Notes under the pieces: generated by a model | The model's input: the letters and a program-made list of their open reading frames with translations, nothing else | The model's database searches: none | Told to the model about the DNA's origin: nothing | Position numbers and translations under genes: made by a program | Part shown: piece by piece, positions 22,646-42,118 of the stretch | Numbering within the stretch: position 1 is the first letter of the stretch | How the letters are laid out: each line of letters starts with the position of its first letter | Assembly (NCBI GenBank): GCA_050695395.1 | Contig: JBOGSL010000155.1 | Location: forward strand, 1 to 43,333 | Origin: Chloroflexota bacterium | GTDB lineage: Bacteria > Chloroflexota > UBA5177 | Reading direction: 5' to 3' | DNA: 43,333 bases

Positions 22646-22672
22646 GCAACAAAACTCCTTTCGCCGCCAGGC

Positions 22673-27341: not shown

Positions 27342-27519
27342 TCGGTTGACGCGGGGGCGACAGAAAAGCCGCTCACGGGACTGCGCTTTGGGAACCCCTT
27401 ATCGCCGTCTTGCCTTTGTCCAAACTTTCGGTGATTATCGTCTGGATAGCCGAGCGCAAAGACGCGTCCGGACGAGATGAGGGTGATATTCTTCACGAGA
27501 TGGGGCAAGGAGAGTAGCG

Positions 27520-28479
27520 ATCGATCCTGACGGAACCTTCATCCTATCCCTCGATACGGAAATCGCCTGGGGCTCGTTTGACGGCGACCTATCGCGGCGG
27601 GCGGCGGCGTTCAACTCCGTCCGTGCCACCATCCGACGGCTTGTCGATCTCCTCGATCGCCATCAAATTCCGGCGACGTGGGCGTTTGTCGGCCATCTAC
27701 TTCTCGACGAGTGTGAACGCGTCAGCGGCACCACGCATCCGGAAGTCCTCAGACCGTCGTACCGCTGGTATCCTCACGACTGGCACTATCATGATCCCGG
27801 CACCGACCAAGAACGAGATCCGTGGTGGTACGGGAAAGACGTTCTGGATATGGTACTGTCCGCCGAGCTGAATCACGAGATCGCGACGCACACCTTCTCG
27901 CACATCGTCGTGGGCGATCCGGATTGCGATCGAGATATTTTTCGGTCGCAGTTGGCGGCCTGCAAACGGCTCCACGATGGGCTCGGGCTTCCGTTTGCTT
28001 CGATCGTCTACCCGCGCAATCGAGTGGCTTTCGTCGACGTCTTGCCGGAGTTTGGAATCACCTCCTACCGAGGCCGACAGGTGGGCACCCGCGGCGGAGG
28101 AGTTGCCGGCCGGGCTCTGACGCTGGCGGATCGCATTGCCGCCCCCACGCCGCCGACCTACAAGCTACCGGTCCGCGGCGATCAGCGGACCGTCAACCTG
28201 CCCGCGTCAATGCTCTATTCTTCGCGCTCGGGCGTGCGCCGACTAGTGCCGATGCGCTCGCGCCTGAGACAAGCGCGACGGGGAATCCGAGAAGCCGCCG
28301 AAGCCGGTCACCTCTTCCACCTCTGGTTTCACCCCTTTAATCTGAGCGGCGACGATGAGCTCTTCTTCGGACTTGACACGATTCTCCGCCGGGTGGCGGA
28401 GTACCGAGAGGCAGGGCGGCTTGACGTTTTGACCATGCAGCAGACAGCAGAGCGCTCCACGGCATCCGCCGCCCTATGA
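27520..28479 (+). CDS. Polysaccharide deacetylase (NodB-homology) family protein; the 5' end lacks a canonical start (candidate ATC start at 27520)
   Basis: The frame is open from 27487 and encodes IDPDGTFILSLDTEIAWGSFDG...IPATWAFVGHLLL...HEIATHTFSH. This covers the Asp motif and the HxxxH metal motif. The first ATG, GTG or TTG in frame is at 27850, downstream of the Asp motif. AAGGAG lies at 27507-27512, 7 nt before the ATC at 27520. Confidence 0.65.
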   Translation: MDPDGTFILSLDTEIAWGSFDGDLSRRAAAFNSVRATIRRLVDLLDRHQIPATWAFVGHLLLDECERVSGTTHPEVLRPSYRWYPHDWHYHDPGTDQERDPWWYGKDVLDMVLSAELNHEIATHTFSHIVVGDPDCDRDIFRSQLAACKRLHDGLGLPFASIVYPRNRVAFVDVLPEFGITSYRGRQVGTRGGGVAGRALTLADRIAAPTPPTYKLPVRGDQRTVNLPASMLYSSRSGVRRLVPMRSRLRQARRGIREAAEAGHLFHLWFHPFNLSGDDELFFGLDTILRRVAEYREAGRLDVLTMQQTAERSTASAAL

Positions 28480-29252
28480 TCATCCTCGCCCACCACCGCG
28501 TGAATCCTGGCTATCGGGGTGTCCTCTCCGTGACGAACGACGACTTTCGCTGGCAGCTGGAGTCTCTCCTCGCACGAGGCTATCGTTGCGTGTCTCTGGT
28601 CGACGCTGTTCGCAATGGCCGCACTCGTCAACGCAATGCTTTCGCCATCACCTTTGACGACGGATATCGCGACAATTACCTGCACGCGATGCCCATCCTG
28701 AAGGATCTAGGGCTGTGCGCCACCGTCTTCGTCACGGTCGATCACATCGACACCAACCGGCTGTACCCCTGGGACGAACAAGAGGTTGATCAATGGGGCG
28801 GCCCGGCCGACGAGGACCGATCGGTCACCTGGGAGCAGCTTCATGAGATGAGAGGAACAGGCATCTTTTCTATTGGTTCTCACACGAGCACGCATCCTAA
28901 CCTGGCGGAAGTTGACCCGGAACTCGCAAACCGGGAAGTTGTTCAATCAAAGGCGGCTCTGGAGGAGCACCTCGGAGAGCCGGTGGACCTGTTCTGCTAC
29001 CCGAGAGGCAGCCTGAATCGTCAGGTCATTCGCATGGCGCGCCAGGCCGGCTATCGAGCGGCGGTGGTCTCGGAGGGCGCCTGGCCGCGTTCCTCTTTCA
29101 CGCTTCCACGGACTCCCGTGTACGGAACAACCAGCCGCGAGTGGTTTCGGCGCCGGGTCGGGCCGGCCTACCAGGGATTGCTGGCGACCGGGGGATTGCG
29201 CTACCTGCAGCGCGCCCGGCGCGTGATAAACAGCCGGCGGAGCGTGCTTTGA
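28476..29252 (+). CDS. Polysaccharide deacetylase (NodB) family protein
   Basis: AFAITFDDGYRDNYLHAMPILKDLGLCATVFV, GSHTSTHPNL and FCYPRG motifs. The start overlaps the stop of the previous gene (ATGA). Confidence 0.9.
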   Translation: MIILAHHRVNPGYRGVLSVTNDDFRWQLESLLARGYRCVSLVDAVRNGRTRQRNAFAITFDDGYRDNYLHAMPILKDLGLCATVFVTVDHIDTNRLYPWDEQEVDQWGGPADEDRSVTWEQLHEMRGTGIFSIGSHTSTHPNLAEVDPELANREVVQSKAALEEHLGEPVDLFCYPRGSLNRQVIRMARQAGYRAAVVSEGAWPRSSFTLPRTPVYGTTSREWFRRRVGPAYQGLLATGGLRYLQRARRVINSRRSVL

Positions 29253-30340
29253 AGGTAGCGTTCGTGATGAGCGCGCGCCGGATCGGGGGAGCGGAGAAGA
29301 ACGTGCTTGATTTTGTGAGTCAAGCCGGCCGGCCCGAATTCGATCTCTCTGTCATTGCTCTGCGCGGCAAGGGCTCGTTTCATAAGCACCTGGCCGAGCA
29401 GGGCGCGGCTGTGTTTGATGTGCGAGGCCCGGCAGGTCCAGTGGTCCCACTCGCCCGCGTTCTCCGTCGCACACGGCCCGATATTGTCCACCTCTTCGGC
29501 GCCCGGGCCAACGCCTGGGGCGGACTGCTGGGCCGTAGTGTCGGAGCCCGGGTCGTCTCCGCCATCATGGGGGCAGATCCCCATCCGCCCTGGTTGAAGC
29601 TGCTACTCAATCGCTCCAGCGGTACCCTCATCGATCACTGGATTGCCAATTCGGAGGCGGGGATTGGGTTAGTCGCTAGCCAAATCGGGGTGTCTCGAGA
29701 TCGCATCAGCCTGATTCGCAACGGGGTCGACATTCGACGTTTTGCTCCGCCGATGGACAAGACGCAGGCCAAGCGGGCCCTCGGCCTGTCGGGAGATGAG
29801 CCCGTGGTCATCCAGGTTGCGAACCTTATGCCTGTTAAGGGTCACCTCCGGCTGATGGAGACCATCCCCGAGCTGCTAGAGACAGCCGGTCCGCTGCAGT
29901 TTCTGTTGGTGGGCGAAGATTACATGGGCGGTGCGGTCCAGCGCAGGGCAGCCGAGCTGGGTTTGAACGGGCGGGTGCGCTTTACCGGGCGACAGCAGGA
30001 CGTTGTGCCGTTCCTGGCTGCCGCCGATGTGTTCGTTCTCCCGTCGCTTCACGAGGGACTTCCCACTTCCGCCATGGAAGCCATGGCAGTGGGGCTACCG
30101 GTGGTTGCCTCTCGAGTCGGTGGCATTCCCGAGCTAGTGGTCGACGCCGAAACGGGACTGCTGGTCGATCCGGACGATCCGCGCTCTCTCGCCGCGGCTC
30201 TCGCTGGTCTCCTGAGCGGCCACTCCCTGGCTTCCCGGTTTGGGTCGGCGGGCCGCAAGCGAATCGTGGAGCACTTCTCGCTGGAGCGGATGGTCCGCGA
30301 CCAGGAAGAATGCTACCGTGAGGTTCTTCGCCGGAGCTAA
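29249..30340 (+). CDS. Glycosyltransferase family 4 (GT-B)
   Basis: The TTG at 29249 overlaps the upstream TGA. The product starts (M)KVAFVMSARRIGGAEKNV and includes EGLPTSAMEAMAVGLPVVASRVGGIPELVVDAETGLLV. The start is uncertain (the ATG at 29267 is an alternative). Confidence 0.85.
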   Translation: MKVAFVMSARRIGGAEKNVLDFVSQAGRPEFDLSVIALRGKGSFHKHLAEQGAAVFDVRGPAGPVVPLARVLRRTRPDIVHLFGARANAWGGLLGRSVGARVVSAIMGADPHPPWLKLLLNRSSGTLIDHWIANSEAGIGLVASQIGVSRDRISLIRNGVDIRRFAPPMDKTQAKRALGLSGDEPVVIQVANLMPVKGHLRLMETIPELLETAGPLQFLLVGEDYMGGAVQRRAAELGLNGRVRFTGRQQDVVPFLAAADVFVLPSLHEGLPTSAMEAMAVGLPVVASRVGGIPELVVDAETGLLVDPDDPRSLAAALAGLLSGHSLASRFGSAGRKRIVEHFSLERMVRDQEECYREVLRRS

Positions 30341-30478: not shown

Positions 30479-31591
30479 TTAGTTGAGCCGGGGGCTTGCA
30501 TAGATCGGCCGCCCGTGCGACCAATCGATCTCGATGTACTGGCGGGTGTGCGCCAACGGAGACCGATAGGTCACCATGTGCAGGGTGTGGGTGTCGATCA
30601 CCTCACCGGTGTCTCCCACGAAGACGTATCGTCCGCCCCGGCTGAAGCTGAGCCAGCCTTCGCGTGATTCGTACTCGTTCTCCAAGCCCGCCAGTCCGTG
30701 CTTGAGCTTAATGTTGGCCACCTCCCGGGGAGGTGAGGCGGGCAATCCGGAGACGTCGAAGACGTGAACATAGTTATTCGGCATGTCAATCACCCAGACC
30801 CTCTTGCCGTTGGGTGACAGGGCGATCCCGTGTGAAGGCACTCCCTCCGATGTTTGGTTCCAGCTGAAACCCTTCGGGGCCACGGTGTAGAGCACCTTGC
30901 CGGTTTTCAAACTGCTGACCTGGAAGCCCAACAATCCCTGAGAGGTGGTGAAGGCCAGCGTCTCGGCATGATTGATAACGAAAGGCGTAACTCCTCCGGC
31001 CAGCGGGCCTATGCGTTTCGTCACGCGATTGGTCTTCGTGCTTGCCACGTAGAGATACGGGTCGCTGTGGGGCCCCATGTACACCCGGTGACGGCCGCAG
31101 GCCGTGTCATGCGTCCCGAGCCCCGTCTCGATCGTAGCCACTACGTCTCCGTTAGCCGTATCAATGACCCGCCAGTGGGTGCCCTGCGTGTAGTCGCCTT
31201 CGGGGAGATACATGCGCTTTCCGTTGGGAGTAAGACACATGGAGTCGACGCCGATGCTGTACGAGCGCCGCCAGACGAGTCGGCCCGTCTGCAGTGTGTA
31301 GGCAGCCACCCAGCCGTCCGACCGGGACACGAGGTAACTGACGTACAGGTCGCCGTTCTTGACGCTCGCCGCCACACCCTTGATCTCCGTAACGCCCGGA
31401 AGGCGAAACGTTCCCGCGGCCCTCATGTGGTGATCGATGTCATAGATGTAAGCGCGTCCATCGGCGAACACGTACTCCTGGTGCTTCACTCCCGGACTCG
31501 ATTCATGTCCGTCGGCTCGACCCGAACACGCCGCGAGCATCCAACAGGCGATCAGCAACAAGACCACGACCCGGACCAGACGCCCCGTCAC
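30479..31591 (-). CDS. Beta-propeller (YVTN/lactonase-like repeat) lipoprotein
   Basis: The GTG at 31591 gives VTGRLVRVVVLLLIACWMLAAC (lipobox LAAC). Repeated blade-like segments are present (LTPNGKRMYLP, IALSPNGKRVWVID, YVFVGDTGEVID). The start is uncertain. Confidence 0.65.
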   Translation of the reverse strand: MTGRLVRVVVLLLIACWMLAACSGRADGHESSPGVKHQEYVFADGRAYIYDIDHHMRAAGTFRLPGVTEIKGVAASVKNGDLYVSYLVSRSDGWVAAYTLQTGRLVWRRSYSIGVDSMCLTPNGKRMYLPEGDYTQGTHWRVIDTANGDVVATIETGLGTHDTACGRHRVYMGPHSDPYLYVASTKTNRVTKRIGPLAGGVTPFVINHAETLAFTTSQGLLGFQVSSLKTGKVLYTVAPKGFSWNQTSEGVPSHGIALSPNGKRVWVIDMPNNYVHVFDVSGLPASPPREVANIKLKHGLAGLENEYESREGWLSFSRGGRYVFVGDTGEVIDTHTLHMVTYRSPLAHTRQYIEIDWSHGRPIYASPRLN

Positions 31592-31657
31592 GATTTGCCC
31601 AGCGCGAATCGACGCCCTAAGTTGCTTGGCAGCGGATCCCGGCGGCCTGTTACATTG

Positions 31658-33028
31658 ATGCCACTTGGCACCCAAAGGATGCGAATGCAAGCCGCCGCCG
31701 ACCCCTTTCTGTCCGAGTCGGGCGATCTGGTGCTCAGAACTGCCGCCTGGTACGGCGATCGCCAAATCCGGTTGCCGGTTCGCCCGGCGTGGTCGATAGA
31801 GGTGAACGGTCCGAGAATCGGAGTAGCTTTACCATTATCTGACGATGATATCGCGACGCGTCTCACCGCGCCAACAGGGACGAAGACGCTTCGGGAGCTT
31901 GCTGAGGGCAAGAAGCATCCACTCATCGTGGTGGATGACCTCAACCGACCCACACCGACGGCGCGGGTTATCCCGACCATTCTGGCGGAACTGGCCGAGG
32001 CCGGCATCGAGGCGTCGAGCGTGGGGATCATGCTTGCTCCCGGAACACACGGAGCGCCGCCGCCGGACGGTCCGGCGAAGAAGGCGGGGGACATCGGGGC
32101 CCGTAACTGCCGGCTCTACGTTCATGACTGCCGCGGCGAGACTGTCAACGCCGGCTCAACTTCCTTCGGGACACCCATCCTGGTCAATCCTCTCGTGATG
32201 AAATCCGATCTGCTCATCGGTTTGGGCGGTGTCTATCCGAACCAGACGGCCGGTTTTGGCGGCGGGACGAAGCTGGCCCTGGGCGTGCTCGGTTTTCGTT
32301 CGATTGCCCATCTCCATTTGTCTCACACCCCGTCGGCATGGGGACATCCGGATCAGGCGAGCGCTCTGAGAACGGACCTGGACGAAATATCGCAGCGGAT
32401 TGGGCTTCGGTTCGTGATCTCACTGGGGCTCAACGCCAATCGCGACGTGGTACGGGTAGATTGCGGCGATCCCCAGCGCTACTACCCGGAGGCTGTGCAG
32501 TGGGCGCGGGAAGCATACCTCTCGGCTCCGCCCGGAACTGACTCGAACGTGGTGATAGCGAATGCGTACCCCAATGACTGCTCTCTCACGTTCATCACCA
32601 TGAAGGGGTTGGCTCCGTTTCGCGGCGCCCCGGCCGGCGCATCGCGTGTCGTTATCGCCTCGTGCCCCGAGGGCCATGGGTTCCACGGGCTGTTTCCATA
32701 CGGGAACGCCCCGAAGGAACATGGGCGCGAAATGATGGCTCTGCGCGCAAGTCTCGCCTTGCGCCGCCCTGGTCGCTGGATCCCCAAGATCGCCCGCAGG
32801 CTTCAGGCGGAGGTCCGCAAGCATGGCCCTCTCGAATCGGACGCCGAGCGTCCTGTCTGGCTTTACCGTCCTCCCGGACCAGATCAACCGCCGCTATCCG
32901 AGCGCCCGGGCTTGAAGATCCGGTCCAACTGGCACGATATCGTTCACGAGGTCAATCGAGAACAGGGCGACGAGAATCTGAAGGTCGTCCTCTATCCCTG
33001 CAGCCCGCTCCAATACGTCGCGACCTAG
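31658..33028 (+). CDS. LarA-family (DUF2088, nickel-pincer 2-hydroxyacid racemase/epimerase-like) protein, divergent
   Basis: LIVVDDLNRPTPTARVIPTIL, MLAPGTHG and GGVYPNQTAGFGGGTKLALGVLGFRSIAHLH parallel the LarA N-terminal-domain motifs. Start candidates are ATG 31658, 31679 and 31685. The first 268 codons of the 724-aa ORF are antisense to the propeller gene and were discarded. Confidence 0.7.
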   Translation: MPLGTQRMRMQAAADPFLSESGDLVLRTAAWYGDRQIRLPVRPAWSIEVNGPRIGVALPLSDDDIATRLTAPTGTKTLRELAEGKKHPLIVVDDLNRPTPTARVIPTILAELAEAGIEASSVGIMLAPGTHGAPPPDGPAKKAGDIGARNCRLYVHDCRGETVNAGSTSFGTPILVNPLVMKSDLLIGLGGVYPNQTAGFGGGTKLALGVLGFRSIAHLHLSHTPSAWGHPDQASALRTDLDEISQRIGLRFVISLGLNANRDVVRVDCGDPQRYYPEAVQWAREAYLSAPPGTDSNVVIANAYPNDCSLTFITMKGLAPFRGAPAGASRVVIASCPEGHGFHGLFPYGNAPKEHGREMMALRASLALRRPGRWIPKIARRLQAEVRKHGPLESDAERPVWLYRPPGPDQPPLSERPGLKIRSNWHDIVHEVNREQGDENLKVVLYPCSPLQYVAT

Positions 33029-33062
33029 GCTTCGCTCCTTCACGTATTGCTCCCGCCCGCTG

Positions 33063-33156
33063 GCACTAAGTGCTGGCTTGCGGCCGAGCGCGCTATGCTC
33101 GTGCCGCCAGCACTAAGTGCTGGCTTGCGGCCGAGCGCACTATGCTCGTGCCGCCG
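33063..33156. repeat. Tandem direct duplication, 2 x 47 bp, containing a stem-loop (GCCAGCAC-TAA-GTGCTGGC in copy 2) at a convergent gene junction
   Basis: Copy 1 is 33063-33109 and copy 2 is 33110-33156. They differ at two positions (G/A at unit position 30 and the last base). The repeat supplies the last codons and the stop of the methyltransferase gene. Confidence 0.85.
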
Positions 33157-33773
33157 TCGGCGTATTGTTGCAACCGCTGTTGCAGGAGTATCCCGAGCCG
33201 GTCCGGAACCACCTGGCGTCCCAGGAGCGTAAATGGACCATATCCGAATCCATCGACTCGTTGGATATCGAGATCTGCAGAATTCAGCAATTGGATGAGA
33301 TCTCGCTGCCGAAAGGCGTGGGTGGAGAACGGGAACTCCCCCTTTCGACCCACGAACCGCTTGACAAGTTCCCTCGGAGCCTTTAGCACCGGCCAGAACC
33401 TAGGATCGAAGAGAAAGGTGAGGCGAGAACTGTTGTCAGAAGTCAGCAACACGTGCGCATCCGGCTTCAGAACGCGTGCTATCTCGCCGAGCGCCGCCTC
33501 CGGAGAGTCGAGAAATGGCAGCACGCCAAGCATGGTTACTAGATCGAACGAGCCCGAATCGTAAGCGAGACAATGGACGTCTCCCTTTCTCACCTCGATC
33601 TGGTCGATGAAACCGGACGCGCGGGCCTGCGATTCTGCCAGCTCTACCATTGCGTCGCTGACATCCAGACTGTGTACCGTGAACCCTCGCCTTGCGAGAT
33701 CAATGGCGAGTAGGCCGGTACCAGCTCCAACCTCGAGCACCCGGCTCTCCGCCGCGAGATTGAGCTCGTCCAC
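33093..33773 (-). CDS. Class I SAM-dependent methyltransferase (Methyltransf_11/25-like); the true N-terminus probably lies upstream of the GTG at 33773
   Basis: VLEVGAGTGLLAIDLARRGFTVHSLDVSDAMVELAE. The frame remains open to 34031 and encodes QVQAYFDRAGPAWTEVYRERTVWGEIHQLRRALALAR without any ATG, GTG, TTG or CTG. Confidence 0.75.
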   Translation of the reverse strand: MDELNLAAESRVLEVGAGTGLLAIDLARRGFTVHSLDVSDAMVELAESQARASGFIDQIEVRKGDVHCLAYDSGSFDLVTMLGVLPFLDSPEAALGEIARVLKPDAHVLLTSDNSSRLTFLFDPRFWPVLKAPRELVKRFVGRKGEFPFSTHAFRQRDLIQLLNSADLDIQRVDGFGYGPFTLLGRQVVPDRLGILLQQRLQQYADGGTSIVRSAASQHLVLAARA

Positions 33774-33967
33774 ACGGGCGAGCGCGAGCGCCCTCCGTAG
33801 TTGATGAATTTCGCCCCAAACAGTTCGTTCACGGTAGACCTCGGTCCAGGCGGGGCCGGCGCGATCGAAGTAAGCCTGTACCTGGCGCCGGTGCTGACCG
33901 GAGTCTGGGTCAGTTGCGTCTATCGAACGAGCGGGGAAAAGCTTAGACCGTTGCGTGGCGGATCCGT

Positions 33968-34738
33968 TTACAGATGTTTGATTGCCACGACTTGTCCGGT
34001 TCCCAGAACGATCAATGGGACGTCGCGCGAATCAAAGAACTCATCCACACTTTGTCGCGTGGATCTTCGAAAGCGGTACAGGCCGTATTCGTTAATCATA
34101 ATAGCCCCTCCGGCCTTGAGCCGCGGCCAGAACCACTCCAGGCACACCCGAGTGGCCTCGTAGGATACGACGTTGACGTGCACGAACGCGTACTCGTCGA
34201 TGTCAGCCACTTCTTCCAGCGTGTTTGGAATCACCCCGGGGTGAAAGACAGCAAAATCGAATGGTGCCAGACGGGCTTCGACCTGGGCGAGGCTCGCGGC
34301 AAAATCACCCGGCTCGGCCGCGTCCCGTTCTGGGACGGTTGTTTCCCGCGGCATGCCCGTGAATGTATCAAACAGGTGGAGGTTGCGCGGCTTGCCGTCT
34401 GCCTCAATGAGCAGCGAGAGCAAGTGCGCGCTTCCACCGGTCGCCACGCCGCACTCGGCCACGTCGCCCGTTATGGCCGCGGACGTTTTGAAGAATTGAT
34501 AAAGCATGTAGCCGTGCGGCTGCTCCCACAGGACGTGCCCGGAACGGTGCACAGTATCCCATGAACGGTGAAACTCTCCGGCCGGGTCGTACCACGGCGC
34601 ATAGACACGGCGACCGTACGGAACGCTTACCGGGTACGCGTGATTCCTGTACCAGCGTCGCTCGATGAGCTTCAGCCCTCTGTACCACGGAGTGCGAAGA
34701 ACCCCGCTAATGCCGGACTTGCCCGGAACTACACTCAT
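33968..34738 (-). CDS. TylF/NovP/MycF-like (macrocin-O-methyltransferase family) methyltransferase
   Basis: The ATG at 34738 overlaps the ATP-grasp stop (ATGA), with GGGGGAGG upstream. Motifs are GDVAECGVATGGSAHLL, LHLFDTFTGMP and KAGGAIMINEYG. The upstream 171 codons of the 427-aa ORF overlap the ATP-grasp gene and were discarded. Confidence 0.75.
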   Translation of the reverse strand: MSVVPGKSGISGVLRTPWYRGLKLIERRWYRNHAYPVSVPYGRRVYAPWYDPAGEFHRSWDTVHRSGHVLWEQPHGYMLYQFFKTSAAITGDVAECGVATGGSAHLLSLLIEADGKPRNLHLFDTFTGMPRETTVPERDAAEPGDFAASLAQVEARLAPFDFAVFHPGVIPNTLEEVADIDEYAFVHVNVVSYEATRVCLEWFWPRLKAGGAIMINEYGLYRFRRSTRQSVDEFFDSRDVPLIVLGTGQVVAIKHL

Positions 34739-35988
34739 GCTTGAACCTCCCCCTCGCGAGCGCGGAACCGGGCCGCCCCGTCGCGCGATATGCCAACAGA
34801 AGAACGTTTCCTCCGCTTTCGATCGCCACCTCGCCGAATCGAAGCGGAAGCCATGCGCCAGAAGGGCTTCATGTCGTCCGCCGCGAACCAGCAGCACTCC
34901 CTCACGCCCCGTAACGAACGCACCCACGCGCCCACTCCGAGGTTGCTGGTGCGCATGTGGTGCAAGGATGACACGACATCGAACGGCTCCATGAGCCACT
35001 TGCGACCGTCCGACATCACTCCGGCCGGCACCTGCTGGCCCGTGAGATCGAGGTACATCGCTCGGGCAACGTCCGTCCCCGACGAGTCGACAAAGAGGCG
35101 GAAGGTGGCACCGATTCGCGGATTGACGTCGAGCAGCTTGTAGCGCCCGTCCCGTCGATCGTACTTGAAGCCGATGTCGAGTATACCCCGGTATCCCACG
35201 TCCTTCATGAATCGCTCGGTCCGGCGGCTGACCGTGTCGTTTGCCTGGCATACCCCGAGGCTGGTCACGCCGCCCTGACTGGGAAACTCGCGCAGCTTTC
35301 GACCGGTCCCCCCGAAGAGGCAGCGCGAGTCGTCATTGAAGTATCCGTTGAACATCCAGATATCCTGTGAGTCGCCGGGGACGTACTCCTGCAGCATTAC
35401 ACTCGGCCGGCCAGGCGTCTCCAGCGCATCGTACTGCGTCAGCAGGGACTCCGGGTCACCGGCCAGAACCATGGCTACCCCGGTTCGCCTCTTGAGCGCC
35501 GCGGTGTCGATACCTTTGAGCATCACGGGAAATCCCGCGTGCCGTGAGAATTCTTCAACCTGGCCTCGGTTTTCCGGAAAGACCGTCGATGCCGTCGGCA
35601 CGTCGTGTTCCTGACAGAGCCTGTACATCGTTCTCTTGTTGGACAGACGGTCGGCTAAATCTGGCGGCTGAGCCGGGAAGAGGAACGTATCGCAAAGCAT
35701 CCGAGCGTTGCTGGACACGAACAAAGCGCCGCGATCGTCCGTCGGAATCAGGAGCGGCTGTCCCCCCACCCGCTCGCCCAGGCGCACGAGCCATTCCACT
35801 GATTCGGGTTCCGCCCTTGCCCGGAAGTCCCAGCAGTGGCTCTGAATCCAGAAGCGCGAACGAGCGACGGGCGAGCGCATGTCATCGTGAACGCCGATGA
35901 CCGGGACGCCGAGCCGCCCGAGACTCCGCGCTATGCCGTGGCCCACGCCGCTGCCGGCCAGCACCACCACCGGCTTCGAGACATCCAA
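34735..35988 (-). CDS. ATP-grasp carboxylate-amine ligase (COG3919-type predicted ATP-grasp enzyme)
   Basis: KPVVVLAGSGVGHGIARSLGRLGVPVIGVHD..., FPVMLKG, MLQEYVPG and LLDVNPRIGATF. TTG start at 35988, 8 nt after the comB stop. Confidence 0.75.
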   Translation of the reverse strand: MDVSKPVVVLAGSGVGHGIARSLGRLGVPVIGVHDDMRSPVARSRFWIQSHCWDFRARAEPESVEWLVRLGERVGGQPLLIPTDDRGALFVSSNARMLCDTFLFPAQPPDLADRLSNKRTMYRLCQEHDVPTASTVFPENRGQVEEFSRHAGFPVMLKGIDTAALKRRTGVAMVLAGDPESLLTQYDALETPGRPSVMLQEYVPGDSQDIWMFNGYFNDDSRCLFGGTGRKLREFPSQGGVTSLGVCQANDTVSRRTERFMKDVGYRGILDIGFKYDRRDGRYKLLDVNPRIGATFRLFVDSSGTDVARAMYLDLTGQQVPAGVMSDGRKWLMEPFDVVSSLHHMRTSNLGVGAWVRSLRGVRECCWFAADDMKPFWRMASASIRRGGDRKRRKRSSVGISRDGAARFRAREGEVQA

Positions 35989-35996
35989 CTGAGTGT

Positions 35997-36758
35997 CTAT
36001 CCCGCTGCCTCGACTGCCGTGGCCGATAACTCGAGATCCGCCCGCGTGCCGATCGCTGTGATCTCGCCCCGTTGGTATCGATAAACACCGGACAGGTCGT
36101 TGATGTGCGTAAGAACGAACTCGAGATCAGCATCCTGGCCGCTGCGGCGAAGATACTCCGCGCTCTTCCCGCCCAGGATCGCCTCGACCGGAGCCTCCGC
36201 CCAGCGGTCGATCACGGCGCGAGTCTGTTCATTCACCGGCTGGTATCCGGCCTCGAGCAGTCCCGCCGCCACGAGAGCACAGCCAAGTTGGTCCTCTTCG
36301 CGGAACTCGGCCCGCGATCCCGCTCCGATAATCGCGACCCTGGGGTGGCGATCGACGAGATATTCGATCTGAGCGCTGTAGTTGCGCAGACATGCGACAT
36401 ACATGGCCTGCGACTCGGCGGCGTTGCAGATGAGCTGAGTTCCCGAGGTGGAGAGCAGAATCATGGGCCGGTCTATGTCGCTTCGACGAGCGACCTGGGC
36501 CGGGCTGTTGGTGATATGGAACCCGTACGGCATATTGCCGCCCAGTTCTCCCGCCAGCAGCGGATAGTTGAGCCAGGCCGCCACGGGCACCGCCGCCTCG
36601 AGCGACGGGACCGGAAAGCAGCGGCGTCCCAAATCAACGGCCGTAACGGCTGTCGTGGTAGCGCGGATGACATCGATGGCCACAACGGCGTATCCGCCGG
36701 CGTACGACGAGACACTTTCGGGGAAACAGTCAATGGCGACCAGGCGAGGCACCGACAC
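35997..36758 (-). CDS. comB: 2-phosphosulfolactate phosphatase (ComB family)
   Basis: VVAIDVIRATTTAVTA, LAGELGGNMPYGFHITNSP and LLSTSGTQ match ComB-family signatures. The GTG start lies 1 nt after the comA stop. Confidence 0.8.
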   Translation of the reverse strand: MSVPRLVAIDCFPESVSSYAGGYAVVAIDVIRATTTAVTAVDLGRRCFPVPSLEAAVPVAAWLNYPLLAGELGGNMPYGFHITNSPAQVARRSDIDRPMILLSTSGTQLICNAAESQAMYVACLRNYSAQIEYLVDRHPRVAIIGAGSRAEFREEDQLGCALVAAGLLEAGYQPVNEQTRAVIDRWAEAPVEAILGGKSAEYLRRSGQDADLEFVLTHINDLSGVYRYQRGEITAIGTRADLELSATAVEAAG

Positions 36759-36759
36759 G

Positions 36760-37569
36760 CTACGCCCTATCCGCTCGCGGCCGCAGATTTGGCTTGGCGA
36801 AAGCGTCGGAATGTAGGCCGCGTCGGTAGATCTCGACTCTCAGTAGCTCCTCTAACCGGACGTTACAGAGCTGCACTTGATTGCCGAAGTGATCGAGCAG
36901 GGCGAACTGGCTGGGCTTGTTGGGGGCCTCGAACATCACGGTGTCGAGCCCAAACGCCCCGGCGAATCGATCGGCGAAGGCCGGATTAAAGTGGCCGCTG
37001 TCGTCGAAAAGTCCCACACCCTGCGCACTTTCCCGCGCCTCGACCACGAGCCGCTTCGCTCCCGCCTCCAGCCAGCTGTAACCTTGCTGGATTAGCTCGT
37101 TGACCGTTTCGTCCACGAACGGTCCGGTGTGTTTTTTGCCCAGCTCGAACTGAACCTCGAGGCCACGCTCTGATGCCATTCCGATGATCTTGTTGGGGTC
37201 CAGAGCCACATCGGTGAAACCCTCGCCGCACTCGATTCCCGCAGCACCCACATCTGCGCATAGATCGAGGTAAGCCTCGAGCTCACCTTGGGTCACTGCG
37301 ACCTCGAACGGTCCGCCGCCAGTGCAGGTGGCCACGCCGTGCTCTCGAGCGGCGGCGAACTTGCGCCGCGTCGCAGCTTCGTCCGCCACCAGCCAACAGG
37401 CCATAGAGATCTTCAGCGATGACATCAGGTGTGCACTCTGGTCTAGATGGCTCTCCAGCGTCACAGGGTCGTACCCCGGATCGAAGGGGCTGGTCAGAGG
37501 CTGCAAATCCGGAACACCAATGCGATGCAGGTAATCACGAGTGGTGGGGCGACTGGCAATATCGGTCAT
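36760..37569 (-). CDS. comA: (2R)-phospho-3-sulfolactate synthase (ComA family)
   Basis: ATG at 37569 with AAGGA upstream. VVEARESAQGVGLFDDSG and VMFEAPNKPSQFALLDHFGNQVQLCNVRLEELLRVEIYRRGLHSDAF closely parallel methanogen ComA as I recall it (IIEGRESGKSIGLFDKEG and VIFEAPQKSQQVAFILKFG...LETLRRGLRGDTF). Confidence 0.85.
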   Translation of the reverse strand: MTDIASRPTTRDYLHRIGVPDLQPLTSPFDPGYDPVTLESHLDQSAHLMSSLKISMACWLVADEAATRRKFAAAREHGVATCTGGGPFEVAVTQGELEAYLDLCADVGAAGIECGEGFTDVALDPNKIIGMASERGLEVQFELGKKHTGPFVDETVNELIQQGYSWLEAGAKRLVVEARESAQGVGLFDDSGHFNPAFADRFAGAFGLDTVMFEAPNKPSQFALLDHFGNQVQLCNVRLEELLRVEIYRRGLHSDAFAKPNLRPRADRA

Positions 37570-37619
37570 AGAAACGTCCTTCTCGCTAAAGCTGCGACAC
37601 CTTCTCGCAACGTGGGGAG

Positions 37620-37648
37620 AGCATAGCACGGAAGCAGGATGACGGCAA
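37620..37648 (-). promoter_or_regulatory. Candidate sigma70-type promoter of the comA operon: -35 TTGCCG, 17-nt spacer, -10 TATGCT
   Basis: The minus strand reads TTGCCG(37648-37643)-17 nt-TATGCT(37625-37620), about 50 nt upstream of the comA ATG. This is a pattern match only. Confidence 0.3.
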
Positions 37649-37898
37649 TGGGTGCCGACATGAGCGCCGAGGGAAAGTCGTCGAGGCTGTATGTGAGGAG
37701 AGGCGATGCAATGCGTCTGACCATTGACCAGGGATCCAGTTGCGCCGTAAAAATGTCGCCCGGAAACCTAGTGCGGACGAATCGCGAAGAGACGGCCGCC
37801 GCGCCGACGCCGAGGTCTCGCCTCCTCGCCCGCGGACGGCCGCACGCCGCAGCCGACACCAGGGGTCGCATTCTCGGCCAGGTGACGGCGAACGGCTC

Positions 37899-38378
37899 CT
37901 AGCGGTTAAAGAGTTCCTTAGCGGCGATGGCTGTGATGCCGGACAAGGCTGCTCGCGCCACCGGATTGCCTCCCGACCCGGCGGATTGACCAAGGAGCTG
38001 GCCGAGGATCCCGGGTTGCTGCTGATGTAGCTGGCCTGTCAACTGGGTGAGGAAACCGGGATCTTGAAGCTTCTGGCTGCTTGCTCCGTTCAGAGTCTGC
38101 TGGTACTGGGCGCCGCCGTGCTTTCCCCCGCCGGTCTGGTTCTGCAGCCACTGGCCGAACTGCGCGCGTTGCTGCGGAGTCATATTCTGGTAGGACTTCT
38201 TCGCCGCGTTCTCCCATCTGTCCTGCGGCAATTGTGCCGCGACGTTGCTGTAGTGCTTCGCAACTTCTTGGTCGGAACAGTTTTGGGCAGCGTGGCCGGA
38301 CTCGTACTGCTGCACGAAGTTCTGCAGGGACTGCTTCTGCTCGCCACTTCCAAGCAGCGTTTCCGCTAGCTGTTCCAT
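37899..38378 (-). CDS. Gln-rich hypothetical protein
   Basis: ATG at 38378 preceded by GAGGAGGAAG. The 159-aa product is Q/G-rich (QQYESGHAAQN..., QFGQWLQNQTGGGKHGGAQYQQTLNG..., LGQLLGQSAGSGGNP). No family was recognised. Confidence 0.6.
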   Translation of the reverse strand: MEQLAETLLGSGEQKQSLQNFVQQYESGHAAQNCSDQEVAKHYSNVAAQLPQDRWENAAKKSYQNMTPQQRAQFGQWLQNQTGGGKHGGAQYQQTLNGASSQKLQDPGFLTQLTGQLHQQQPGILGQLLGQSAGSGGNPVARAALSGITAIAAKELFNR

Positions 38379-38527
38379 TTCTTCCTCCTCTTGGCGCTAT
38401 CGAGGAACACGCAAGACCCGTGCCCCCGGGTCGGCCAGGGCATTGGACCGGCGCGGCCGTCTGAAGGCAGGGCCGTTGTTGGTTGCTGGATTGACAGTCA
38501 CCGCGCGGCGGTGTAAGGTGCCCGTAG

Positions 38528-39796
38528 ATGCTTGGCGGAGACGTGTCGGCCCGGACCGGCCTGGGGGAGCGCGAAGTGCGAGAGGCGGCGAGGCCGCTGG
38601 TCAGCCATGTGATCACGCTGGGTGATCCGATGACGGGTGCCCAGCTCAACACTCTGACTTGCTTGCAAAAAACCCAGGCGCGGTATGGTGTCGAGCTCGT
38701 GATGGGTTGCGATGGACCGATGCGCCAGGCCTGTCACGACAGAGGGATTCGCGCGTTGGTCATCCCATTCAAAAACACGATGCTTGCTCCGTTCGCCGAT
38801 ATTCGCGCCATCGTAGCCCTTATTCGCCACTTCCGCCGTGTCCATCCCGAGATTGTGCAGACGCACTCCAGTAAAGCCGGCGTGCTGGGAAGGATTGCGG
38901 CGCGTCTCGCCGGTGTCCCGATCGTCGTCCATACCTGGCACGGCCCGTCCTTTCATGAGACGCAGCCCCCAATAGTGCAGTTTGTGCTCCGCTCGCTTGA
39001 GCGATTGCTGAGCGGCCTCACCGACTTTCACGTCTGCGTGGCGGATACGTTGCGCGCCGATCTGATCGACTCAAAAATTGCGGTGCCTGAACGGATCGCC
39101 ACGGTACGTAGCGGCATTCGAGCCGAACCGTTCCGAACACATCGAGCAGACGCCCGCCGAGAGATTCGACGCGAGCTCAATATATCGGCGGAGGCGCCGG
39201 TGATTATCAGCGTTGGAACGTTGCAAGCCAATAAGGCTCATCACCTGCTGATCGAAGCTGCACGGAGGCTGCTGCACCGCTATCCTGACTCTCGCTTCCT
39301 TATTGCCGGGCCGGCCGTGATGCTTGAGTCCGAGGTCCCGGGCGACCTTCAGCGACGAATCGACCAGGCCGCCATTGGAGATCGAGTCCAGCTCCTGGGA
39401 TCGCGCCAGGATGTGCCGTCGCTGTTGGCGGCTTCGGACATCTTTGTTCTCACGTCATGGCGCGAAGGGTTGCCTCGATCCGTCATCGAGGCCTTATGCA
39501 GCGGGCTGCCCGTCATAGCCACCGACACGGGTTCCACACGAGACGTCGTTGTGGAAGGAGGCAACGGATTTCTCATCGGTCCAGGAGATGTCGATGCTTT
39601 GACCGATCGACTGGAGAGGCTGCTGGCTGATAAACCATTGCGGGGGGATATGGCGGCTCAAGCGTCGCGCTTTGATGCGACGAGTTGGAGCCCGGACGAG
39701 ATCGGAAAGACATACGTCGCGCTGTACCAACACCTTTTAGAACACGCAGCACCAAGCGGCGACATCCGCATGGGTGCGTCGCAGGGGGAGGCTTGA
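38528..39796 (+). CDS. Glycosyltransferase family 4 (GT-B)
   Basis: HVITLGDPMTGAQ..., IVQTHSSKAGVLGR and REGLPRSVIEALCSGLPVIATDTGSTRDVVVEGGNGFLI. The start is uncertain (ATG 38528 or GTG 38576). Confidence 0.85.
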   Translation: MLGGDVSARTGLGEREVREAARPLVSHVITLGDPMTGAQLNTLTCLQKTQARYGVELVMGCDGPMRQACHDRGIRALVIPFKNTMLAPFADIRAIVALIRHFRRVHPEIVQTHSSKAGVLGRIAARLAGVPIVVHTWHGPSFHETQPPIVQFVLRSLERLLSGLTDFHVCVADTLRADLIDSKIAVPERIATVRSGIRAEPFRTHRADARREIRRELNISAEAPVIISVGTLQANKAHHLLIEAARRLLHRYPDSRFLIAGPAVMLESEVPGDLQRRIDQAAIGDRVQLLGSRQDVPSLLAASDIFVLTSWREGLPRSVIEALCSGLPVIATDTGSTRDVVVEGGNGFLIGPGDVDALTDRLERLLADKPLRGDMAAQASRFDATSWSPDEIGKTYVALYQHLLEHAAPSGDIRMGASQGEA

Positions 39797-39797
39797 A

Positions 39798-40790
39798 GTG
39801 GTAAGGACATATCTGGTCACGGGGGCGGCTGGGTTTATTGGCAGTCACGTGGCAGAGGGCCTGTTGCGACGCGGGGATCGCGTCGTCGGACTCGATAATT
39901 TGAACGATTACTATAGCCCGGTGCGGAAGCGCGCCAATCTTCTCGAGGTGCAGAGCGGCGCACCCGATTCATTCCAGTTCGTTCAGGGCGACGTTCGCGA
40001 CTCGGGTCTGGTGAACGAACTGTTCGCTCAGGAAAACTTCTCGGCGGTGATCCATCTGGCCGCCATGGCCGGAGTGCGGGCTTCGTTGGAGGATCCGTTT
40101 CTCTATTACGACGTCAACGTCATCGGCACCTTGACCTTGCTCGAGGCCGCCCGTACCTATCACCCCAATTTTGTCTTCGCGTCTACTTCGTCCGTGTACG
40201 GCCGCACCGACAGGATTCCTTTTGTCGAAGACGACGTCTGCGATCGTCCCCTGGCTCCGTACTCCGCCAGCAAACGGGCCGCCGAGCTGCTGTGCTTCAG
40301 CTACCATCATTTGTACCGCCAGAGCGCTACCATTCTTCGCTTCTTCTCCGTGTACGGGCCCCGCGGTCGTCCCGATATGATGGCTTACAAGGTGGCGGAG
40401 AGCACATGTTCGGGGCTCCCGGTCCCGCTATATCGAGGCGGTCAGATGTACCGGGATTGGACATACGTTGACGACATCGTTCAGGGCGTTGTCGCGGCCG
40501 CGGACCGCCGTCTGGGTTACGAGATTATCAACCTGGGGGCCGGCCGGCCCGTCTTGCTGGCGGACTTCGTGGCCCAGCTCGAGACACTGTCCGGGCGAAA
40601 GGCGAATCTCGAGACGGCTACGATGCCCGATGCCGATATTGAGTACACCTACGCCGATATCAGCAAGGCGCGTGAGCTCCTGGATTATGAACCCACCATG
40701 CTTGTAGACCAGGGCGTCCCCGCCTTCTGGCGGTGGTACGCGGGCAGCGCGATCCAGGAGCCGGTCGTTGCAGCCGGCTCGGGCGTCTGA
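39798..40790 (+). CDS. NAD-dependent nucleotide-sugar 4-epimerase (UDP-glucuronate / UDP-GlcNAcA 4-epimerase-like SDR)
   Basis: GTG at 39798 with GGGGGAGG 6 nt upstream. VTGAAGFIGSH Rossmann motif and YSASKRAAE (YxxxK). Confidence 0.85.
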   Translation: MVRTYLVTGAAGFIGSHVAEGLLRRGDRVVGLDNLNDYYSPVRKRANLLEVQSGAPDSFQFVQGDVRDSGLVNELFAQENFSAVIHLAAMAGVRASLEDPFLYYDVNVIGTLTLLEAARTYHPNFVFASTSSVYGRTDRIPFVEDDVCDRPLAPYSASKRAAELLCFSYHHLYRQSATILRFFSVYGPRGRPDMMAYKVAESTCSGLPVPLYRGGQMYRDWTYVDDIVQGVVAAADRRLGYEIINLGAGRPVLLADFVAQLETLSGRKANLETATMPDADIEYTYADISKARELLDYEPTMLVDQGVPAFWRWYAGSAIQEPVVAAGSGV

Positions 40791-40798
40791 CGCCCGTG

Positions 40799-42118
40799 AT
40801 GGGCGACCATCGGGCGAAGCTGCTCGATGCACTGGAAAAGCGAGAGGCTCGGGTGGCGATTGTGGGCCTCGGCTACGTCGGCCTCCCGCTGGCCGTAGCC
40901 TTCGCTGAGGCCGGTTTCCGGGTAACGGGCATCGATACGGATGCGGCGAAAGTGGAGGCGATTCGCAGAGGAGAGTCGTATGTCATGGACGTTCCGTCGC
41001 AGAGCCTGTCTGCATTGGTTGCGGACGGCACGCTCACCGCGACCGTCGATTTTTGCGCCCTCGGCTCGGCGGACGCCGTCTCGATCTGTGTCCCCACGCC
41101 GCTGCGCAAAACGGGCGATCCCGACATATCGTTCGTCGTCTCTGCGTCTGAACAGGTAGCGAAATATCTCCACCCGGGCATGGTGTTGGTACTGGAGTCC
41201 ACCACCTATCCGGGCACTACCCGCGAGGTGCTGCTTCCCTATCTCGAGGACAGTTCTAATCTGACCCTGGGAGAATCACTCTTCGTGGCGTTTTCGCCTG
41301 AGCGAGTGGACCCGAGCAGGACCGACTGGACCACACGCACGACGCCGAAGGTGATCGGCGGTCTCACGCCCGCCTGTCTCGAGGTCGCCTCTGCTTACTA
41401 CAGCGCCGCCATCGAGACCCTCGTCCCCGTCAGCTCACCCGAGGCGGCCGAGATGGTGAAGCTTCTCGAAAATACGTTCCGGGCCGTCAACATCGGACTT
41501 GCCAACGAGGTGTTGCTGATGTGCGAGACACTGGGCCTTGACGCCTGGGAGATCATCGATGCGGCCGGCACCAAGCCGTTCGGGTTCATGAAGTTCTCTC
41601 CCGGTCCGGGGCTGGGGGGCCACTGCATTCCAATCGATCCGATCTATCTCTCCTGGCGGCTCAAGGCGCTGAATTACCAGGCTCGCTTCATCGATCTTGC
41701 CACCGCCATCAATGGGGATATGCCGCGATACTGGGTTCGCAAGGTTCAGGACGCGTTAAACGATCGTTGTCGATCGCTGAGAGCAAGCAAAGTTCTTGTC
41801 CTCGGAGTGGCTTACAAGAGGGACGTGAGCGACGTGCGAGAATCTCCCGCGCTCGATATCATCAGGCTGCTGCAAGAGGCAGGCGCGGAGGTCGGCTACC
41901 ATGACCCCTATGTCGAGTCGCTAGAAGGCCACGGGGCGCAGCTAAACAGCGTGCCGGACCTTGCCGGCGCATTGGCCTCCGCCGACTGCGTTGTGGTGGT
42001 CACCGATCATTCCAGCTACGACTGGCGCTGGGTTGAAGCACAGGCACACCTGATCGTCGACACGCGACATGTTGTTGCTTCCGAGGTAGCTGCCGAGCTG
42101 GCGCCGCCGCTTTCGTAG
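40799..42118 (+). CDS. Nucleotide-sugar 6-dehydrogenase (UDP-GlcNAc/ManNAc dehydrogenase-like, WbpA/TviB/WecC group)
   Basis: VAIVGLGYVGLPLAVAFAEAGFRVTGID and GGHCIPIDPIYLSW (catalytic Cys motif of the N-acetylhexosamine dehydrogenase group). Start is ATG 40799 or GTG 40796. Confidence 0.85.
   Translation: MGDHRAKLLDALEKREARVAIVGLGYVGLPLAVAFAEAGFRVTGIDTDAAKVEAIRRGESYVMDVPSQSLSALVADGTLTATVDFCALGSADAVSICVPTPLRKTGDPDISFVVSASEQVAKYLHPGMVLVLESTTYPGTTREVLLPYLEDSSNLTLGESLFVAFSPERVDPSRTDWTTRTTPKVIGGLTPACLEVASAYYSAAIETLVPVSSPEAAEMVKLLENTFRAVNIGLANEVLLMCETLGLDAWEIIDAAGTKPFGFMKFSPGPGLGGHCIPIDPIYLSWRLKALNYQARFIDLATAINGDMPRYWVRKVQDALNDRCRSLRASKVLVLGVAYKRDVSDVRESPALDIIRLLQEAGAEVGYHDPYVESLEGHGAQLNSVPDLAGALASADCVVVVTDHSSYDWRWVEAQAHLIVDTRHVVASEVAAELAPPLS

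Follow-up and report, generated by a model that had tools for sequence, protein, structure and literature searches.

A ComA-ComB-ATP-grasp operon within a polysaccharide locus

A 43,333-nucleotide contig from a metagenome-assembled Chloroflexota bacterium of the UBA5177 lineage (GCA_050695395.1, JBOGSL010000155.1), referred to below as the window, includes a Wzx/Wzy-dependent polysaccharide locus in which five minus-strand genes make up a single operon. They encode homologs of phosphosulfolactate synthase (ComA) and 2-phosphosulfolactate phosphatase (ComB), an ATP-grasp ligase, and two S-adenosylmethionine (SAM)-dependent methyltransferases. Comparison with related loci indicates that ComA, ComB, and the ATP-grasp ligase constitute a conserved, horizontally spread cassette. 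In the interpretation that we favor, with a probability of roughly 45%, 3-sulfolactate would be made from phosphoenolpyruvate (PEP) and sulfite, activated as an acyl-phosphate by the ATP-grasp enzyme, and ligated to an amino group on a repeat-unit sugar, yielding a sulfonated glycan. More tentatively still, we propose that a mobile Methyltransf_11-ComA-ComB-ATP-grasp module places N-(3-sulfolactyl) groups on amino sugars of surface or extracellular polysaccharides, and that several hundred or more bacteria of soil and sediment, from at least six phyla, possess it.

The operon opens with the gene for the ComA-like phosphosulfolactate synthase (36760 to 37569; PF02679, E = 7.5e-46). Its open reading frame (ORF) extends back to a GTG at 37629, and the true start is likely the ATG at 37569 because homologs align from about residue 21 of the ORF. 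The gene for the ComB-like 2-phosphosulfolactate phosphatase follows (35997 to 36758; PF04029, E = 2.7e-34), beginning 1 nt past the comA stop (TAG-C-GTG). Its own TAG is separated by 8 nt from the TTG start of the ATP-grasp gene (34735 to 35988), the proposed sulfolactate:amine ligase, which has weak Pfam matches and was assigned from an AlphaFold2 (AF2) model and Foldseek. The ATP-grasp stop and the start of a TylF-like SAM O-methyltransferase gene (33968 to 34738; PF05711, E = 6.8e-13) overlap by 4 nt as ATGA, with the Shine-Dalgarno sequence GGGGGAGG upstream; a 427-amino-acid ORF at 33968 to 35251 was rejected because it overlaps the ATP-grasp gene and the real TylF-like start is the ATG at 34738. 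The last gene encodes a Methyltransf_11 methyltransferase (33093 to 33923; PF08241, E = 4e-22). Its first canonical start is a GTG at 33773, homology to relatives runs about 45 residues upstream of that codon, and no canonical start codon occurs in this homologous stretch; the gene probably starts near an ATA at 33923, so that about 44 nt would separate it from the stop of the TylF-like gene.

A sequence-only reading of this DNA had described the five genes as packed head to tail on the minus strand, and profile matches for each ORF agree; the three junctions that it listed were read from the sequence exactly as claimed. It had also placed a promoter solely upstream of comA. A sigma-70-type consensus scan of positions 32900 to 38600, the comA upstream region included, gave no promoter-like site, and terminator-like matches in the same interval were at background level only. 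Rfam matched nothing anywhere in the window and yielded no credible element in the comA leader, from which we conclude that no riboswitch is present. A hydropathy scan found no signal peptide or transmembrane segment in the operon proteins or in either of two deacetylases encoded nearby; the chemistry is therefore taken to be cytoplasmic. Directly upstream of comA lies a gene for a Gln-rich 159-amino-acid protein without a family match (37899 to 38378, minus strand).

Conservation of the cassette across bacteria

Searching one genome per GTDB species identified 233 genomes with a close ComA relative, and the best 80 loci were analyzed. In about 70 of these, from at least six phyla, ComA is followed directly by ComB and then by ATP-grasp; many of the exceptions are truncated contigs. 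The hosts belong to the Acidobacteriota (Terriglobia and Bryobacterales), Chloroflexota, Bacteroidota/Ignavibacteria, Gemmatimonadota, Actinomycetota, and Proteobacteria, together with two metagenome-assembled genomes (MAGs) labeled Bathyarchaeota. ComA is the most conserved of the cassette genes (65 to 75% identity), followed by ComB (44 to 64%) and the ATP-grasp ligase (43 to 57%). A reverse survey from the ATP-grasp side scanned metagenomes, with matches on at least 548 contigs. Among its best 80 loci, 45 were informative in having at least 1.8 kb of sequence upstream of the ATP-grasp gene; ComA was found in 39 of these and ComB in 37. All three ATP-grasp matches inspected individually lie in the order methyltransferase-ComA-ComB-ATP-grasp. 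An association this far beyond chance, which survives transfer between phyla, is strong evidence that the three proteins share one pathway.

A homolog of the Methyltransf_11 gene was detected by tblastn in 44 of the 80 genome loci and, by ORF clustering, directly upstream of ComA in 21. The window protein is 34 to 43% identical to the cassette methyltransferases (best E = 4e-71) and is the ortholog of the one whose gene usually precedes comA immediately. These comparisons indicate that methyltransferase, ComA, ComB, and ATP-grasp make up the core module, which is mobile and occurs widely among soil bacteria. No counterpart of the TylF-like gene was seen in the 80 genome loci; that gene was rejected as a member of the conserved module and is a window-specific accessory. 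Thus, the operon partners proposed from the sequence alone, an ATP-grasp ligase, a TylF-like enzyme, and a second methyltransferase, are all present, and the TylF-like enzyme falls outside the conserved cassette.

A cultured carrier is Bradyrhizobium elkanii WSM2783 (NZ_AXAP01000035.1). Its locus (L073, about 53 to 74 kb of that record; genes at positions 7327 to 18613 of L073) reads membrane protein, Methyltransf_11, ComA, ComB, ATP-grasp, and a mandelate-racemase-superfamily gene, with Wzy and GT4 genes adjoining. The two loci from MAGs labeled Candidatus Bathyarchaeota (L074 and L076) hold a bacterial-type cassette with GT2 and GT4 neighbors and a ComA of about 70% identity, which reflects either interdomain transfer or misbinned bacterial contigs.

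ComA and ComB

ComA scores 157 bits against PF02679 (cut-off, 25.2) and covers profile positions 12 to 243 of 243; the NCBI name for the protein is phosphosulfolactate synthase. It is 31% identical over its full length to ComA of Methanocaldococcus jannaschii (1qwg; 114 bits). Across 64 cassette ComA sequences, 92 alignment columns are near invariant, and the M. jannaschii enzyme is identical at 44 of them, including K136/K137, E103, E133, E168, R170, E205, and K209; Lys137 has a catalytic role. ComB scores 118.7 bits against PF04029 (cut-off, 26.4) and keeps the motifs DVIRATTT, GE..G..P.GF..NSP, and AG...F..ED in comparison with 2yyv and 2z0j; its relatives in the PDB also include 1vr0. Loss of catalytic residues had been named in the sequence-only reading as grounds for abandoning a sulfolactate role. 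Charged residues are shared with M. jannaschii ComA, the ComB family motifs are conserved, and with full-length family matches both proteins look competent.

ComA and ComB catalyze the addition of sulfite to PEP and the subsequent dephosphorylation in the coenzyme M (CoM) pathway of class I methanogens, and XcbB of Xanthobacter, also a member of PF02679, adds sulfite to PEP (PMC9457059). Family membership thus predicts that the pair in the window would make 3-sulfolactate from PEP and sulfite. The same precedent could be read as the first two steps of CoM biosynthesis, which we consider very improbable indeed. No comC, comDE, or xcbC-E gene was found among the scanned ORFs of the window, the recurrent neighbor families of the 80 genome loci, or the recurrent neighbors of 160 related loci, in keeping with the earlier remark that comC and comDE are missing here. 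The bacteria concerned are soil heterotrophs, and in them ComA and ComB have an ATP-grasp ligase as their constant partner within a glycan locus. With the later pathway genes not found, this explanation was rejected. The M. jannaschii pair and Xanthobacter XcbB have the two families, the adjacency of the genes, and the predicted chemistry in common with the window, which differs in having no downstream CoM genes and in combining an ATP-grasp ligase and methyltransferase(s) with ComA and ComB in polysaccharide loci of nonmethanogenic soil bacteria.

Bacillus subtilis YitD/YitC is a bacterial ComA/ComB pair whose pathway ends in sulfolactate, not CoM. Its product is a free solute, and the pair has neither an ATP-grasp partner nor a glycan context. 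By bit score, the window ComA resembles the M. jannaschii enzyme (114 bits) much more than it does YitD (1u83; 58 bits).

The ATP-grasp ligase

An AF2 model of the ATP-grasp protein, built with 40 homologs, had a predicted local distance difference test (pLDDT) score of 84.5. Foldseek matched it to biotin carboxylase, PurK, PurT, and L-amino-acid ligases (E of about 1e-15; query-normalized TM-score of 0.46 to 0.62), while a PDB sequence search gave marginal biotin carboxylase matches only. K158, E201, D287, N289, and R291 are invariant across the 40 homologs, and the first four of these are the nucleotide and Mg ligands. On the strength of the model, the protein is predicted to be a competent carboxylate-activating ligase, an assignment made at the superfamily level. 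It has the fold and nucleotide-binding motifs of the ATP-grasp carboxylate-amine ligases (COG3919 label, PurT, RizA, YwfE, and BL00235), which join a small acid to an amine via an acyl-phosphate. The name "D-aspartate ligase" attached to its homologs is an automatic JGI label, and the context here is not that of peptidoglycan.

The ATP-grasp gene also occurs apart from ComA and ComB. In two metagenome loci, L151 (3865 to 8902) and L162 (690 to 3977), the order is a gene of the OCD/mu-crystallin family, then a Methyltransf_11 gene different from that of the cassette, then the ATP-grasp gene, and neither ComA nor ComB was detected on these contigs. The L151 ligase is 50% identical to that of the window and is followed by a Wzx gene; the L162 contig ends right after the ATP-grasp gene. 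In L117, on a contig where ComA and ComB were likewise not detected, the ATP-grasp gene lies between GT4 and Wzx genes. Because the ATP-grasp gene stays in a glycan locus even without ComA and ComB, its clade may comprise small-acid:glycan ligases with swappable supply modules, and the gene arrangements suggest that it joins small acids from these interchangeable modules to a glycan acceptor.

Glycan context of the cassette

Glycan-synthesis genes were scored by tblastn within 10 kb of the cassette and were found in 42 of the 49 full-length genome loci. Together with the order kept in about 70 of 80 loci, this bears out the co-occurrence of comA/comB, ATP-grasp, and Wzx/Wzy genes that the earlier reading had marked for survey. 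Four of the remaining seven loci were spot-checked. In three of these, a Wzx, GT4, or DUF354 gene adjoins the cassette; in L014, the other one, genes for a 2-hydroxyacid dehydrogenase and an HpcH-type aldolase take that place. Genes found nearby include GT4, GT2, Bac_transf, Wzx, Wzy, Poly_export, UDP-sugar dehydrogenase, and a NusG-like antiterminator.

Four architectures recur. The Bryobacterales type reads DegT, a PglF-like 4,6-dehydratase, an unknown gene, a second DegT, a CE4-like gene, ComA, ComB, and ATP-grasp, after which an RND pump and GH123 often come. In the Terriglobia type, BcsQ-like, NusG-like, UDP-sugar dehydrogenase, epimerase, Bac_transf, and methyltransferase genes precede ComA, ComB, and ATP-grasp, which are followed by a multipass membrane protein and, farther on, Wzy. 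The LarA type consists of a methyltransferase, LarA, in some cases NodB, and then ComA, ComB, and ATP-grasp. The Bacteroidota/Ignavibacteria type runs NodB, FemAB-like, AMP-binding enzyme, methyltransferase, ComA, ComB, ATP-grasp, a second methyltransferase and ATP-grasp, FemAB-like, and GH9. In seven loci of this last group (L016, L017, L020, L021, L047, L056, and L069), the AMP-binding enzyme, the FemAB-like Acetyltransf_6 proteins, and the second methyltransferase/ATP-grasp pair surround the cassette, which suggests a more elaborate, possibly amino-acid-containing, substituent.

These loci also bear on the idea that the product is a small free sulfonate, either sulfolactate or a sulfolactyl amino-acid conjugate, serving as osmolyte, signal, or means of sulfite detoxification, and that the position among glycan genes reflects co-mobilization. 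Bacillus spores accumulate free sulfolactate through ComA/ComB homologs, few glycan genes are recognizable near the cassette in L014, L029, L033, and L060, and the AMP-binding, FemAB-like, and second ATP-grasp proteins of the Bacteroidota suggest peptide-like chemistry. Against this stand the frequency of glycan genes around full-length loci, the Wzx, GT4, or DUF354 gene next to ATP-grasp in most of the others inspected, and the persistence of the ligase beside Wzx and glycosyltransferase genes where ComA and ComB are lacking. Moreover, no small-anion exporter recurs among the neighbors, the RND pump of the Bryobacterales excepted. We therefore regard a free sulfonate as improbable.

Candidate sources of a sugar amine

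The proposed ligation would use a sugar amine, and the window encodes two candidate de-N-acetylases on the plus strand. One is a clear NodB/CE4 polysaccharide deacetylase (28476 to 29252; PF01522, E = 5.5e-29). The other (27520 to 28479) is a divergent CE4-like protein whose C-terminal 209 residues have no Pfam match at E ≤ 1e-3; its hhalign match to the NodB group (probability 94.9%, E = 4e-8) identifies it as a second deacetylase, so that the earlier count of two NodB deacetylases was right. The motif columns for Asp/His/His and Arg do not vary across its family (D12, H124, and H128; metal-binding Asp and His-x3-His motifs), and it has weak PDB matches to ArnD and to peptidoglycan deacetylase. 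It is a homolog of the gene, which we called u355, that lies directly upstream of comA in Bryobacterales.

An AAGGAG lies 7 nt before an ATC at 27520, and the conserved N-terminal region of the CE4-like gene precedes its first canonical start. The same anomaly is seen in the Methyltransf_11 gene: at 27484 to 27852 and at 33774 to 33970 (minus strand), conserved N-terminal regions precede the first ATG, GTG, or TTG, and the frame contains none of these codons as far back as the previous stop. This points to noncanonical ATH start codons or small MAG assembly errors.

Among loci with a scorable upstream gene, 12 have the CE4-like gene immediately before comA. In three loci NodB separates LarA from comA, and DegT is present in 20, usually with a PglF-like dehydratase. 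Altogether, DegT, NodB, or a CE4-like gene was found within 6 kb in 24 of the 49 full-length loci.

LarA and other alpha-hydroxyacid enzymes

A LarA-family 2-hydroxyacid racemase homolog (31679 to 33028, plus strand; PF09861, E = 1.8e-33) is encoded convergently with the operon. A 724-amino-acid ORF at 30854 to 33028 was rejected as overextended, since LarA begins near 31679. LarA adjoins the cassette in 10 of the 80 genome loci and 16 of the 80 metagenome loci, and in other genomes it lies inside the operon. The best NCBIfam matches of the window protein are the malate racemases LarAH6 (156 bits) and LarAH5 (141 bits), far below their cut-offs; malate is the carboxylate analog of sulfolactate. 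Like known LarA racemases, the protein has a Lar_N domain, the catalytic His108, Lys184 (the tether of the nickel-pincer nucleotide), and His200 (a nickel ligand). It differs from them in having Asn in place of His174, as well as in its sub-cut-off scores and in lying on a contig without cofactor-synthesis genes. Asn or Gln occupies this position in all 10 cassette-linked homologs (Gln in one), and Asp72 and Arg75 are also kept throughout the set (window, L003, L007, L008, L019, L020, L025, L026, L030, L032, and L060). With His174 replaced in all 11, a classical two-base racemase mechanism is doubtful, and the cassette-linked LarA proteins look like a distinct subgroup that may not act as two-base racemases. 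The earlier identification of a LarA-type racemase thus stands for the family and for its recurrence as a neighbor, and does not stand for one of the two catalytic histidines, which is lost. No description of a LarA-type sulfolactate enzyme was found in the literature searched.

Two other kinds of alpha-hydroxyacid enzyme occur near the cassette. In B. elkanii, a gene of the mandelate racemase superfamily overlaps the stop of the ATP-grasp gene. L014 and L082 each have a D-2-hydroxyacid dehydrogenase beside the cassette, and L082 has an FMN (flavin mononucleotide) dehydrogenase as well. Three unrelated kinds of such enzymes fit a free 2-hydroxyacid intermediate whose configuration matters. They recall the racemization of sulfolactate by two dehydrogenases (Denger and Cook 2010, as cited in PMC7324677).

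Proposed pathway and alternatives

In the proposed pathway, ComA would condense sulfite with PEP to give (2R)-phosphosulfolactate, and ComB would remove the phosphate to release 3-sulfolactate. The LarA homolog may invert this acid or otherwise act at its hydroxyacid C2. In the cytoplasm, the ATP-grasp enzyme would convert the sulfolactate carboxylate to an acyl-phosphate, sulfolactyl-phosphate, and transfer the acyl group to a free amine on a sugar of the repeat unit, itself carried on a nucleotide or a lipid. The result would be an N-(3-sulfolactyl) amino sugar (+152 Da, C3H4O5S). We base this ligation step on conserved synteny and on ATP-grasp chemistry. The amine would be exposed by the two CE4/NodB-type de-N-acetylases in the window and supplied by the 4,6-dehydratase and DegT in Bryobacterales. 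Methyltransf_11 and the TylF-like enzyme would add methyl groups in the cytoplasm, before export. Methylation of the already exported polymer, as previously suggested, is unlikely: the methyltransferases are soluble SAM enzymes without signal peptide or transmembrane segments, which would place methylation before export. The GT4 enzymes, Wzx, Wzy, and the BY-kinase would then assemble and export a sulfonated acidic glycan.

Several observations weigh against this pathway. The case is built throughout on family membership and genomic context. The host genome was read here as this 43.3-kb contig, and the rest of the genome may provide for use of a free sulfonate. No initiating phosphoglycosyl transferase was found among the window ORFs scanned; Bac_transf is present in related Terriglobia loci. 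The loss of His174 weakens the LarA link, and no larB, larC, or larE is present on the window contig. The ATP-grasp protein differs from the carboxylate-amine ligases in being at most 19% identical to any PDB match or solved structure, with no close characterized structural relative, and the occurrence of a 50%-identical ligase without ComA and ComB means that specificity for sulfolactate is unreadable from the ATP-grasp sequence. Two further points, concerning the ComA and ComB scores and the source of the amine, belong as well to competing explanations.

The first is that ComA scores 150.5 bits against the NCBI archaeal equivalog TIGR03849 (cut-off, 280) and ComB at best 76 bits against the NCBI equivalog models (cut-off, 235), so that both are family members and not archaeal orthologs. 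These scores would also suit a pathway in which ComA and ComB handle no sulfonate and the acid that they provide for ligation is another 2-hydroxyacid made from PEP (lactate-, glycerate-, or malate-like), as would the closeness of the neighboring LarA to malate racemases. ComB enzymes have been reported to hydrolyze other 2-phospho acids. Nevertheless, the window ComA has its charged residues in common with the M. jannaschii enzyme, and ComA is strongly conserved across phyla. All characterized PF02679 members add sulfite to PEP (M. jannaschii ComA; XcbB, PMC9457059; the misaugamycin cassette, PMC9136965). A product other than sulfolactate is accordingly quite improbable.

The second is that about half of the full-length loci, mostly of the Terriglobia type, have no recognizable amine-generating gene within 6 kb. 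In a competing explanation, the ATP-grasp enzyme would amidate the carboxylate of a uronic acid residue, made by the UDP-sugar dehydrogenase, with an amine, and the ComA/ComB product would be converted to an amine (for example cysteate) before use, ester-linked via its hydroxyl, or used in a separate role. An ATP-grasp amidoligase reportedly serves the Campylobacter jejuni capsule, for which no confirming paper was found in the literature searched. A UDP-sugar dehydrogenase and an epimerase are encoded in the window and in many loci, including those of the Terriglobia type that lack DegT and NodB, and certain loci also encode a 2-hydroxyacid dehydrogenase, an FMN dehydrogenase, or DegT, with which sulfolactate could in principle be taken through sulfopyruvate to cysteate. 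However, sulfolactate itself has no amine, and the conserved core contains no dehydrogenase or aminotransferase. A dehydrogenase of the window type was found by tblastn in only 9 of the 80 loci, and DegT is paired with a 4,6-dehydratase, an arrangement typical of sugar amination. On balance, uronate amidation appears unlikely, and ligation of sulfolactate to a sugar amine remains the explanation that we favor.

The surrounding locus

The polysaccharide locus spans roughly 16.5 to 42.1 kb of the window and has the composition of a Wzx/Wzy-type system: a flippase, a Wzy_C polymerase, a P-loop protein with a weak GNVR match, and four GT4 glycosyltransferases. The minus strand encodes a BY-kinase/PCP-like protein (16510 to 18780; weak GNVR match and ParA/CbiA P-loop matches) and a Wzy-type polymerase (18862 to 20322; Wzy_C). 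On the plus strand are the Wzx-type flippase (23263 to 24978; PF13440, PF01943), two GT4 glycosyltransferases (25101 to 26210 and 26229 to 27341; PF00534, PF13439), the two deacetylases, a third GT4 enzyme (29141 to 30340; PF00534, E = 1e-38), and LarA. Beyond the operon, also on the plus strand, Pfam matches identify a fourth GT4 enzyme (38528 to 39796), an NAD-dependent sugar epimerase (39774 to 40790), and a UDP-sugar 6-dehydrogenase (40733 to 42118). The flanking context described from the sequence alone, with Wzx, Wzy, a BY-kinase-like protein, GT4 enzymes, a dehydrogenase/epimerase pair, and a LarA homolog, was confirmed by this annotation. In the closest related locus, L028, the epimerase (66% identical) and dehydrogenase (69%) likewise lie beside the cassette. 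An FkbM methyltransferase is also encoded within the locus, near Wzx.

Other features were noted in and around the locus. The BY-kinase/PCP-like ORF (756 amino acids) has a match to the DnaA N-terminal domain (PF11638, E = 2e-7) at residues 568 to 621, past the P-loop, in an unusual C-terminal extension. Genes of the DinB/mycothiol-S-transferase family and for a dienelactone hydrolase (22094 to 23338, minus strand) sit midlocus between the FkbM region and Wzx, and a predicted lipoprotein with the lipobox LAAC and YVTN-type beta-propeller repeats is encoded between GT4 and LarA (30479 to 31765, minus strand). A PAS-PAS-GGDEF-EAL protein (13279 to 15633, minus strand) immediately adjoins the locus and is a possible cyclic di-GMP regulator of its expression. 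Unrelated genes (RecJ, amidohydrolase, and permease) occupy the left 16 kb of the window.

Relation to known systems and implications

In the misaugamycin-B pathway, the sulfite-responsive misNOPQ genes form a small mobile cassette with a ComA homolog, proposed as the source of an N-terminal 2-sulfoacetyl group (PMC9136965). There, as proposed here, a ComA homolog feeds a sulfonated acyl group that is N-linked to a larger molecule (PMC9136965). The misNOPQ system uses an acyl-coenzyme A (CoA) ligase, an acyl carrier protein (ACP), a glyoxalase, and a peptide N terminus as acceptor, whereas the window combines ComB and an ATP-grasp ligase with a proposed glycan acceptor. The logic of exposing an amine in the cytoplasm and reacylating it with an unusual acid is that of NodB/NodA and of Pgl-type N-acylation of 4-amino-4,6-dideoxy sugars. 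Those systems use acyl-ACP or acyl-CoA transferases; an ATP-grasp enzyme acting with a free acid is proposed here.

No link of ComA/ComB or sulfolactate to polysaccharides was found in the literature searched, in agreement with the earlier reading, which knew of no polysaccharide pathway that uses ComA and ComB. To our knowledge, sulfonated glycans with C-S bonds are very rare in bacteria, and we know of no biosynthetic route from sulfolactate to a polymer. The parts of the proposed pathway come from known families; no account of their being combined with this ATP-grasp clade to decorate a glycan was found in the literature searched.

If the proposed pathway is correct, it would define a new glycan modification and a new class of C-sulfonated bacterial glycan, in which the polymer would bear a permanent strong negative charge beyond the reach of sulfatases. 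It would constitute a third fate for phosphosulfolactate, after CoM and spore sulfolactate, and give ComA and ComB a role outside methanogens and spores. The ATP-grasp protein would define a family of small-acid:glycan ligases and provide a function for a large uncharacterized clade comprising thousands of metagenomic proteins, and the accessory enzymes may include the first LarA-type enzyme acting on sulfolactate. B. elkanii WSM2783, as a cultured carrier, makes the idea directly testable. Given how common the cassette is among Acidobacteriota and other phyla that dominate soils, its product could explain part of the organosulfur of soils (sulfonate-S) and affect the properties of the soil exopolysaccharide (EPS) matrix.

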